This document shows, piece by piece, positions 39,579 through 40,278 of a stretch of DNA of 64,000 nt. The notes beneath the pieces are model-generated. The model made no database searches. It was not told the origin of the DNA and was given only the letters and a program-made list of their open reading frames with translations. Positions within the stretch are counted from its first letter, which is position 1, and every line of letters begins with the position of its first letter. This DNA is from Escherichia phage SholemSchwarzbard: sequence record PP925840.1. One strand, written 5' to 3'. The translations under genes were made by a program, and so were the position numbers.

Positions 39579-39636
39579 TTTATTCTCCTCGGTAGTTGAT
39601 AGGGTAATAGTATCACTACCCTATCTAAAAGTAAAC

Positions 39637-39870
39637 TTATTTTTTACGAAAAATTGATTTATATTTATCAGCCCATTTCTCAATGACTTTTGCCGGGCCA
39701 TAGATAACAAAGTAATCGCCAAACTCTTCACCACCGAGTTGACCGAAATTATCTAATGCATCACGAAGAACTCCATGAGGCATTTCACCCATTTTATCTT
39801 TCTTGCCAGTGTAAATAAACTCAACTTTTACATCAGCAGTTTCAGCAATAAATTCTTGATACGTTTTCAT
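39637..39870 (-). CDS. head internal protein with capsid-targeting sequence (IPI-locus)
   Basis: ORF 39637..39888 trimmed to the ATG at 39870, giving 77 aa starting MKTYQEFIAE; SD GGAG upstream. Confidence 0.65.
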   Translation of the reverse strand: MKTYQEFIAETADVKVEFIYTGKKDKMGEMPHGVLRDALDNFGQLGGEEFGDYFVIYGPAKVIEKWADKYKSIFRKK

Positions 39871-39948
39871 TTTATTCTCCAATTTCACATTTGTTTTGAT
39901 AGGGTAATAGTATCACTACTAAAACCCCGTGTAAACAACTTTGTGAAA

Positions 39949-40206
39949 TTATTTTAAATCTTCTAATCGTTTCTTCATCTTAGAACCATTTTTAGCGATT
40001 TCTCCTGCGTCAGAGCATAATGCTAAAAGTGCTTTAACTTTAGTTTGGTCTCCTTTAAAAGATGAAGGATCGACTGCAGCAGCAAGTTCTTTAATACGAG
40101 AGAAAAGACGCTCAGCTTCAGCTAAAGCCATTCCAAGCTTTACTTCCATACCATGAGAAGATTCAGTGATAGTAGTTTCTGTAGCAAATTCTTTGAAAGT
40201 TTTCAT
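39949..40206 (-). CDS. internal-protein-like protein with targeting-type N-terminus
   Basis: 85 aa starting MKTFKEFATE; helical, Ala/Lys-rich. Confidence 0.55.
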   Translation of the reverse strand: MKTFKEFATETTITESSHGMEVKLGMALAEAERLFSRIKELAAAVDPSSFKGDQTKVKALLALCSDAGEIAKNGSKMKKRLEDLK

Positions 40207-40278
40207 TTTATTTTCCTAATTAATTTTGATGAGGTAATAGTATCACTACCTCATCAGCATGTAAACAACTTTGTGAAA

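Follow-up and report, generated by a model that had tools for sequence, protein, structure and literature searches.

Repoila, Tetart, Bouet and Krisch reportedly described in 1994 a conserved sequence of ~70 bp, located both 5' and 3' of the open reading frames (ORFs) of the internal proteins (IPs) of T-even phages, in which a T4 early promoter carries an overlapping inverted repeat. Here, we analyse elements of this kind in a stretch of 64,000 nucleotides from Escherichia phage SholemSchwarzbard (sequence record PP925840.1), referred to as the window, where three early promoter modules lie around the two IP genes ipV and ipVI and the -10 elements are enclosed by inverted repeats. The initial annotation of this stretch did not recognise that such palindromes are a described feature of T-even IP loci and of the promoter-early stem-loop (PeSL) cassettes; its finding is a rediscovery. 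As a discovery, it adds little to an element published in 1994 and also found in the reference sequence of T4, where the ipI promoter carries the identical TGATGAGGTA/TACCTCATCA palindrome; what the present analysis adds are quantities, namely the covariation across the family, the preference for the sense strand, the association with compact spacing and the division into two classes.

PeSL cassettes are known from the phages RB49/phi1, PST/T4 and nt-1/KVP40 (Arbiol 2010, PMC2839356; Comeau 2014). Their stem-loops are mostly located between -35 and -10 or overlap the -10, and are drawn with G–T pairs; the stem of PeSL211/210 of RB49 cut the expression of a lacZ reporter to roughly the same extent as rrnB T1 did, and it is for this one RB49-type stem only that terminator activity was shown (Arbiol 2010, PMC2839356). 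Proposed roles are those of an attenuator or terminator of upstream transcription and of a substrate for modular shuffling (Arbiol 2010, PMC2839356; Comeau 2014). The IP elements of T-even phages are regarded as analogues of the PeSLs, not as homologues, with T4 early promoters and weaker, AT-rich stem-loops, and Repoila 1994, in the account given of that work, saw PeSL-like sequences at the two IP loci (Arbiol 2010, PMC2839356). A further precedent is offered by the T4 genes e, soc, 49 and I-TevI, in which a promoter lies within an RNA hairpin, so that long transcripts reading through are structured and the transcripts of the embedded promoter lack the 5' arm (Uzan & Miller 2010, PMC3014915).

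The promoter modules of the IP locus

A repeat search returned a 41-nt module in three copies (39596-39636, 39896-39936 and 40226-40266), as the initial annotation had claimed. Every copy, read on the minus strand, which is the gene strand, consists of the -35 element GTTTAC, a gap of 18 nt and TG-n-TACTAT; this T4-early consensus (GTTTAC, TG-extended -10, A/T-rich upstream tract) recurs at further early promoters in the window as well as in T4. The modules have a common layout, an AT-rich tract with the stop codon of the upstream gene being followed by the -35 and -10 elements, the stem-loop, the Shine-Dalgarno (SD) sequence and the ATG, and the distance from the stop codon to the -35 is 0-12 nt. 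They are as follows:

40227..40286, minus strand: module 3 (copy 3), the ipV promoter, between 57B and ipV, with a 10-bp palindrome
39880..39951, minus strand: module 2 (copy 2), the ipVI promoter, between ipV and ipVI, with a shifted arm and a composite hairpin
39598..39636, minus strand: module 1 (copy 1), the promoter of a tRNA.4-like membrane-protein gene, with a 9-bp palindrome

Copy 3 reads taaaataatttcacaaagtt GTTTAC atgc TGATGAGGTA gtgaTACTAT TACCTCATCA aaattaattAGGAaaataaaATG. Its upstream A/T tract is found at 40286-40267, the -35 GTTTAC at 40266-40261, the TG at 40245-40244 and the -10 TACTAT at 40242-40237, and its palindrome is formed by the 5' arm TGATGAGGTA (40256-40247), the loop GTGATACTAT (40246-40237) and the 3' arm TACCTCATCA (40236-40227); transcription would, as far as can be judged from the sequence, start near 40230, within the 3' arm. 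Copy 1 reads cgtaaaaaataa GTTTAC tttta GATAGGGTA gtgaTACTAT TACCCTATC aactaccGAGGAGaataaaATG, its -35 (39636-39631) following immediately after the ipVI stop codon; the -10 lies at 39612-39607, the 5' arm GATAGGGTA at 39625-39617, the loop at 39616-39607 and the 3' arm TACCCTATC at 39606-39598. Both palindromes are perfect and share the 10-nt loop GTGATACTAT with the extended -10, in agreement with the initial annotation, which had however given 9 bp to both stems, whereas that of copy 3 has 10 bp and only that of copy 1 has 9. The two stems differ in two adjacent base pairs, both of which are compensated (AG/CT versus GA/TC), and this claim held as well.

The third copy of the earlier description, said there to lack its second arm, is copy 2, which does possess one, although shifted and partly decayed, within a 72-nt composite hairpin. 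It reads taaaataatttcacaaagtt GTTTAC ac GGGGT tt TAGTA gtga TACTA tt ACCCT atcaaaacaaatgtgaaattGGAGaataaaATG (-35 at 39936-39931, -10 at 39912-39907). The shifted helix pairs GGGGT (39928-39924) with ACCCT (39905-39901), and inside it TAGTA (39921-39917) pairs with TACTA (39912-39908); a middle helix is formed by TTGTTT (39938-39933) and AAAACAA (39897-39891), and an outer 9-bp repeat, AATTTCACA/TGTGAAATT (39950-39942 and 39889-39881), brackets the whole promoter. The composite hairpin has a predicted energy of -25.9 kcal/mol (z score -5.25) and ends at the first G of the SD sequence GGAG (39880). Its inner and middle helices recur in orthologues, whereas the outer stem is lineage-specific.

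Some observations on this outer repeat may be placed here. It is missing from the orthologues in phage GiZh and in the related loci L353 and L384, and it represents a 9-bp inverted copy, within the ipVI leader, of the upstream element of the promoter, which is also found at 40272-40280. The inverted copy in the leader yields, in addition, a promoter-like sequence on the plus strand, TTCACA-N18-TAGTAT.

A 30-nt upstream tract, which had been counted as part of the module in all three copies, is found only at 39936 and 40266. A 76-nt repeat is likewise common to copies 2 and 3 only, the upstream sequence of copy 1 being different. The same upstream tract is carried by the window promoters 8119, 20434 and 35635; it is the generic upstream element of T4 early promoters, and the idea that it belongs to a special module was rejected.

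Selection for pairing, strand and spacing

The mere existence of palindromes in this DNA is unremarkable, since the window contains eight perfect palindromes of at least 9 bp with short loops, against 3.7 +/- 1.9 in shuffled sequences; the signal is positional, and it is remarkable that two of them share the axis of one repeated promoter. We scanned IMG/VR for GTTTAC-N14-GTGATACTAT with the arms left unconstrained, which gave 92 unique modules. A perfect stem of at least 7 bp encloses the -10 in 17 of the 92, whereas an exchange of 5' and 3' halves among the modules leads one to expect ~2. On one common symmetry axis, at least 12 sequence-unrelated stems are present in relatives, for example GATAGGGTA, GATGAGGTA, GGTGTAGGAGC, TGGTAGGAGC, TGGTAGAAGAC, CCGGAAGT, GGTCTAT and AGGCTAT, as well as AGGGCTAT, AGGGTTAT, GGTAGGACTA, GTGTAGGGATA and the 14-bp TCCTAGAATTGTGA. 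An unbiased collection of the locus itself, 36 loci anchored on the neighbouring gene 57B, contains at least eight different stems on the same axis at the orthologous trna.4 promoter. The orthologues of copy 2 carry a perfect, shifted ATAGGGT/ACCCTAT, as does the T4 trna.4 promoter.

The initial annotation had argued that compensatory change implies selection for the structure itself, and had named an alignment of the promoter family, related phages included, as the way to assess covariation. Such an alignment was made of 127 unique early promoters with an 18-nt spacer from T4-like DNA, unselected for pairing, with a fixed-axis helix pairing columns 10–20 with columns 31–41 and with loci limited to those having blastn similarity to T4 or to the window; scans with 15-base patterns (GTTTAC-N15-TGATATTAT and TGATAGTAT), in which the matches listed were mostly unrelated viral contigs, were excluded. 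Of the cells, 50.9% are paired, compared with 44.0 ± 0.9% after shuffling and 33–42% when the partners are slid by 1–3 columns, and the covariation score is 0.252, compared with 0.162 in shuffled and 0.11–0.15 in slid alignments, these promoter sets being phylogenetically dependent and enriched for the GTGATACTAT class, as loci were partly fetched by the motif of the palindromic class. For both quantities, none of 500 shuffles and none of the slid controls reached the observed value. At the level of the family, selection on the pairing itself is well supported, by the shared axis, the covariation and the folding energies relative to the null sets given below, and with the relatives included the argument from compensatory change can be upheld.

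For the molecule concerned, the earlier description had offered a DNA cruciform or a hairpin in read-through RNA. The structure favours sense-strand RNA over a cruciform or a palindromic operator, so that the second of these options is favoured and the first disfavoured. As sense RNA, the helix extends inwards by G·U, U-A and G·U pairs, formed from the TG-n-TAcTAT core, to an AUAC tetraloop, giving a 13-bp stem in copy 3 (minimum free energy over 81 nt −20.5, z −4.7) and a 12-bp stem in copy 1 (−19.4 over 81 nt, z −3.1). The antisense RNA keeps the 10-nt loop (−15.2 and −13.4), and the DNA hairpins, also with a 10-nt loop, are weak (−8.1 and −6.9 kcal/mol). Internal mismatches in otherwise good helices are, on the sense strand, G·T in 8 cells, which trace back to ~6 independent events, and G·A in a single cell, with no case of A·C, whereas strand-symmetric mutation would predict a G·T to A·C ratio of 1:1. 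Among the strong hairpins, the sense fold is better than the antisense fold in 77 of 80 (median gap 4.5 kcal/mol, compared with 1.3 in composition-matched shuffles), and G·U accounts for 73 of 829 arm pairs in sense and 15 of 891 in antisense. Relatives reach the same fold without dyad symmetry of the DNA, by way of shifted arms, bulges and long-range arms. The transcripts of the promoters themselves, with a start placed by prediction in the 3' arm, are unstructured (−0.4 and −0.8 kcal/mol), and in the predicted folds of copies 1 and 3 both SD and AUG are unpaired, the 3' arm ending 7-9 nt before the SD. A search of Rfam with positions 38000-41500 at a permissive threshold (E<=1) returned tRNAs and no other curated RNA family.

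The presence of the hairpin is linked to the space available upstream of the promoter. In T4, a hairpin that encloses the -10 and has an energy of −10.9 kcal/mol or lower is formed at 13 of the 15 early promoters with an upstream stop codon at most 16 nt from the -35, while such a hairpin is found in only 3–4 of the 10 promoters with at least 50 nt of upstream space, several of which have instead a classical GC-rich hairpin with a T-run just upstream. Throughout the family, the energies (ΔG, folding free energy) of the enclosing hairpins, in which the contrast of 80% to 21% (127 modules) is indicative, being inflated by kinship and motif-biased fetching, are as follows:

Compact promoters (n=90): median ΔG −14.4 kcal/mol, 80% ≤ −10
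Roomy promoters (n=34): median ΔG −4.2 kcal/mol, 21% ≤ −10
Null set with arms shuffled (n=120): median ΔG −4.1 kcal/mol, 9% ≤ −10
Null set with halves swapped (n=120): median ΔG −7.1 kcal/mol, 18% ≤ −10

Two classes of hairpins can be distinguished. In class A, to which the copies of the window belong, the SD stays outside the hairpin, whose end lies at about +3 to +8; in class B, comprising 21 of the 80 strong hairpins, the 3' arm pairs with the downstream SD. Class B is found in T4 at dexA, regB, denV, 53943, 136336 and 166807, and in the window at promoter 18995 (position of the -35, minus strand), where the spacer sequence TGTTCCTCTG pairs with the SD-containing CGGAGGAACA (-19.5 kcal/mol). 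The trna.4-type promoter of the loci L354, L359, L370 and L385 (~4663-4790) has, in place of a short palindrome, a long-range repeat of 10 bp, CTCCATTTGG...CCAAATGGAG; its 3' arm coincides with the downstream SD, so that read-through RNA would be translationally closed. Palindromes are also found upstream of many non-IP genes in relatives, and a specificity for IP genes was rejected, as the palindrome is present at the T4 promoters of motB, dmd/41, mobD.2, e.8 and frd.2.

With regard to single promoters, it should also be noted that window promoter 23178 (-35, minus strand) has a 15-bp helix on the axis with two G.U pairs (-17.9) and is the orthologue of the T4 mobD.2 promoter with its perfect 14-bp palindrome, and that the T4 reference sequence contains, at ~70359, an ambiguous base (N) in the 5' arm of the e.8 promoter palindrome ATAGGCTNAT...ATGAGCCTAT.

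Taken further, these data would tentatively suggest a rule for T-even genomes as a whole, which we consider less likely than not and of which the IP-locus palindromes may be the most conspicuous case: nearly every early promoter abutting an upstream gene would sit in a sense-strand RNA hairpin made of the spacer and the initially transcribed region, the same nucleotides coding for a promoter and for a transcript-specific RNA switch, by which read-through RNA would be capped with a hairpin that protects its 3' side or attenuates (class A), or silenced in translation where the 3' arm extends to the SD (class B), and promoter-proximal RNA left open. The PeSL papers and the precedent of gene e come close to such a dual-coding rule. 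We know of no earlier quantitative account of the dual coding, the two classes, the link to compact spacing or the G.U signature of the sense strand.

Proposed function and its alternatives

We consider it reasonably probable, by analogy with the described cassettes, that the modules are T-even early promoters combined with a stem-loop, whose hairpin would act on read-through RNA as an attenuator, as a barrier to 3'→5' exonucleases, or as both. The proposal builds on the structure, covariation, sense bias and compact-spacing link observed above; the attenuating or stabilising activity is argued from its sole support, the analogy with the one tested PeSL stem of RB49/phi1. A strong early promoter packed against the upstream stop codon would leave as free positions only the spacer (~-24 to -16) and -6 to +3, so that a hairpin made from them necessarily encloses the -10, and these positions would have been shaped into an inverted repeat. 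RNA reading through from upstream, late transcripts included, would then fold a 12-13 bp hairpin 11-22 nt after the stop codon, while RNA from the promoter itself, starting in the 3' arm, would have an unstructured leader and escape the hairpin. The hairpin would thereby serve as a 3' boundary of the cistron lying upstream, whose message would have its 3' end defined and stabilised: 3'→5' exonucleases, which degrade T4 mRNAs (Uzan & Miller 2010, PMC3014915), would be blocked after endonucleolytic cuts in the A-rich, GGAG-containing leader downstream. It would do the job of the separate terminator hairpin seen at promoters with upstream space, and the conserved 16-bp core common to the modules would supply homology for cassette shuffling.

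For the IP genes, class A would be the suitable arrangement. No late-promoter motif is found within 39300-40800, which covers the IP locus, the nearest one upstream being TATAAATA at 41332-41339 (minus strand), inside gene 1; as IPs are head components needed late, their genes would have to be translated from hairpin-bearing read-through RNA.

Several points weigh against the proposed action on read-through RNA. No U-tract follows the hairpin at any copy, the tails being A/C-rich (AAAAUUAAUU, AACUACCGAGG), and a terminator scan of 38600–41200 gave no terminator-like site, which makes efficient intrinsic termination unlikely; the intrinsic terminator was consequently dropped, and of the roles suggested by the initial annotation that of a terminator does not hold in its canonical form. 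Broken chimeric modules exist in relatives, joining the 5' arm AATAGGGTA (or ATGGGGT) to the 3' arm TACCTCATC (L369:5174, L376:4469 and 4802), so that the hairpin is dispensable at least transiently. These chimeras look like crossovers within the shared GTAGTGATACTATTAC core, as the shuffling model of PeSLs predicts, L369:5174 having undergone in addition a slipped duplication of GATACTATTACCTCA. The small number of independent events behind the count of G.U versus A.C calls for caution, part of the G.U excess could stem from a C->T bias that transcription causes in the non-template strand, and the inflation of the spacing contrast has to be borne in mind. Furthermore, the reporter evidence comes from a GC-rich stem of the RB49 type, not from a T-even stem, and in the T4 literature (Term-seq, dRNA-seq, long-read) no transcript-end or half-life data for these hairpins were found; a T4 omics paper does not mention the IP genes.

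Among the alternatives, selection of the palindrome at the level of DNA, as a mark or stimulus of recombination cassettes, perhaps through a structure-specific protein and with an incidental RNA hairpin, would agree with the presence of modules on both sides of the IP genes, with the chimeric modules pointing to crossover in the shared 16-bp core, and with the slipped duplication (L369, L376); such a role has been proposed, and mini-circles were detected in RB49/phi1 (Arbiol 2010, PMC2839356; Comeau 2014). We nevertheless regard it as unlikely: homologous exchange needs a conserved core, not variable arms, and crossovers destroy the palindrome; G.U pairs are confined to the sense strand, an asymmetry that a duplex or cruciform signal would lack; promoters that do not belong to variable loci (motB, dmd/41, e.8) have the same hairpins; and shifted or bulged arms, like the SD-pairing variants, keep the folding of the RNA, not the dyad symmetry of the DNA. 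The free SD also bears on the possibility that the hairpin gates downstream translation, read-through RNA being translated poorly and RNA of the embedded promoter efficiently, for which T4 e, soc, 49 and I-TevI provide the documented precedent (Uzan & Miller 2010, PMC3014915). The 3' arm covers the SD at many T-even early promoters (the 21 of 80 strong hairpins and window promoter 18995), and the composite hairpin of copy 2 ends on the first G of GGAG; but the predicted folds of copies 1 and 3 leave SD and AUG unpaired, with the arm stopping 7-9 nt short, and with IPs needed late and no late promoter in the locus, ipV and ipVI would only be harmed by a block on translating read-through RNA, so that for the copies of the window a gate seems rather improbable.

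Covariation itself could be mimicked by a functionless mutational process, the templated correction of quasi-palindromes by strand switching in replication. Templated mutation at quasi-palindromes has reportedly been established in T4 rII by Ripley and colleagues, the adjacent double changes of the window stems are obtainable in a single templated event, and broken versions persist in nature. Such a process leaves unexplained, however, why hairpins concentrate at gene-abutting promoters (80% versus 21%, with the inflation stated above; 13 of 15 versus 3-4 of 10 in T4), how many unrelated stems originated at one place, why imperfections of the G.U type are restricted to the sense strand and why non-palindromic routes, by shifted or SD-pairing arms, lead to the same RNA fold, and we judge it very improbable as the full explanation. 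Control of the promoter through a DNA cruciform or a palindromic operator, by supercoil-dependent occlusion of the -10 or a dimeric repressor, would profit from a dyad centred on the -10, where extrusion or binding would affect initiation. The arms vary freely while their complementarity is kept, which argues against a sequence-specific protein site; a DNA hairpin whose loop spans 10 nt and whose energy is no better than -7 to -8 kcal/mol makes extrusion unfavourable; and the tolerance of G.T mismatches, bulges and shifted arms, together with the strong asymmetry between sense and antisense, renders this the least probable of the explanations, with hardly any weight left to it. An action of the hairpin on read-through RNA, as attenuator or exonuclease barrier, is hence the reading we retain.

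The locus and its place among known systems

The window is DNA of a T4-like phage (Tequatrovirus). A 1.8-kb query around the modules matched 611 phage records, nearly all of them Escherichia/Shigella Tequatrovirus, with identities of up to 98%, and the matched part is annotated there with internal head protein, 57B and 57A. The gene order, established by comparison with T4 and with phage GiZh, for which an annotation exists, is 57A – 57B – ipV – ipVI – tRNA.4 – tRNA.3 – tRNA.2 – tRNA genes, all on the minus strand, T4 having a single ipI where the window has ipV and ipVI; judging from this order, the region corresponds to the hyperplastic IP1 locus, the variable internal-protein locus next to 57B. 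The genes around the modules are:

40279..40734, minus strand: gene 57B, whose stop and last codons (DLK*) lie within the repeated module upstream of module 3
39949..40206, minus strand: ipV-type internal protein gene (leader MKTFKEF...), flanked by modules 3 and 2
39637..39870, minus strand: ipVI-type internal protein gene (leader MKTYQEFIAE...), flanked by modules 2 and 1
39393..39578, minus strand: tRNA.4-like small membrane protein gene, downstream of module 1

The 76-nt repeat (39949-39964 and 40279-40294) supplies the final codons, ...DLK-stop, of 57B as well as of ipV, so that an exchange of cassettes swaps C-terminal residues of the upstream genes, too. Elsewhere in the window, a 177-aa ORF with GIY-YIG-like motifs (YLYKITNKINNKIYIGVH...YMGSG; 37846-38623), adjoining tRNA genes (38387-38623), resembles the homing endonuclease segB of the T4 tRNA cluster. 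A perfect 9-bp palindrome, TTATAAATA/TATTTATAA (43663-43687), coincides with two divergent late-promoter motifs (TATAAATA on both strands) and is probably a divergent late promoter pair, and at 52911-52932 (plus strand) AAGGGAGCC-catg-GGCTCCCTT and a T-run, placed directly after GTTTAC, have the look of a classical intrinsic terminator.

IP loci encode anti-restriction proteins that are injected, and few parts of T4-type genomes change as fast; the flanking cassettes drive the expression of the IP genes and allow their swapping between phages. If the inverted repeat is a selected feature at the level of RNA, changes in the spacers of early promoters would not be neutral in phage engineering, and the RNA reading offers a concrete prediction to work on transcript ends or mRNA stability.

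In comparison with known systems, the hairpins of the window share with intrinsic terminators the position of a stable RNA hairpin just past a stop codon, but differ from them in having no U-tract. With the hairpins of T4 e, soc, 49 and I-TevI they share the logic of a promoter placed within a hairpin, its own transcript lacking the 5' arm (as would follow from the predicted start in the window). There, however, a late promoter is combined with a sequestered SD/AUG, whereas copies 1 and 3 have an early promoter and a free SD, and the helix of copy 2 only touches the first G of GGAG, leaving the SD otherwise outside; class B follows the logic of these genes, but with an early promoter. The likeness to the PeSLs is closer in architecture, as the modules of the window show the same succession, in which an AT-rich tract containing a stop codon precedes a strong early promoter with its stem-loop and then SD and ATG, and are likewise repeated between small genes of variable regions. 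They differ in the promoter, which is of the T4-early type (GTTTAC...TAcTAT) and not a near-perfect sigma-70 consensus, and in the stems, which are of mixed sequence, weaker, AT-rich and variable, in place of the polyG/polyC stems, G(n)-loop-C(n), of the PeSLs. The T-even IP-locus elements reportedly described by Repoila 1994 are matched in locus (downstream of 57B), in gene class (the MKT(Y/F)(Q/K)EF leader) and in arrangement, the IP ORFs being flanked on either side by an early promoter that an inverted repeat overlaps; from the elements so reported there is no essential difference, the content of the locus in the window being ipV/ipVI, of the T2/T6 type, and not ipI.

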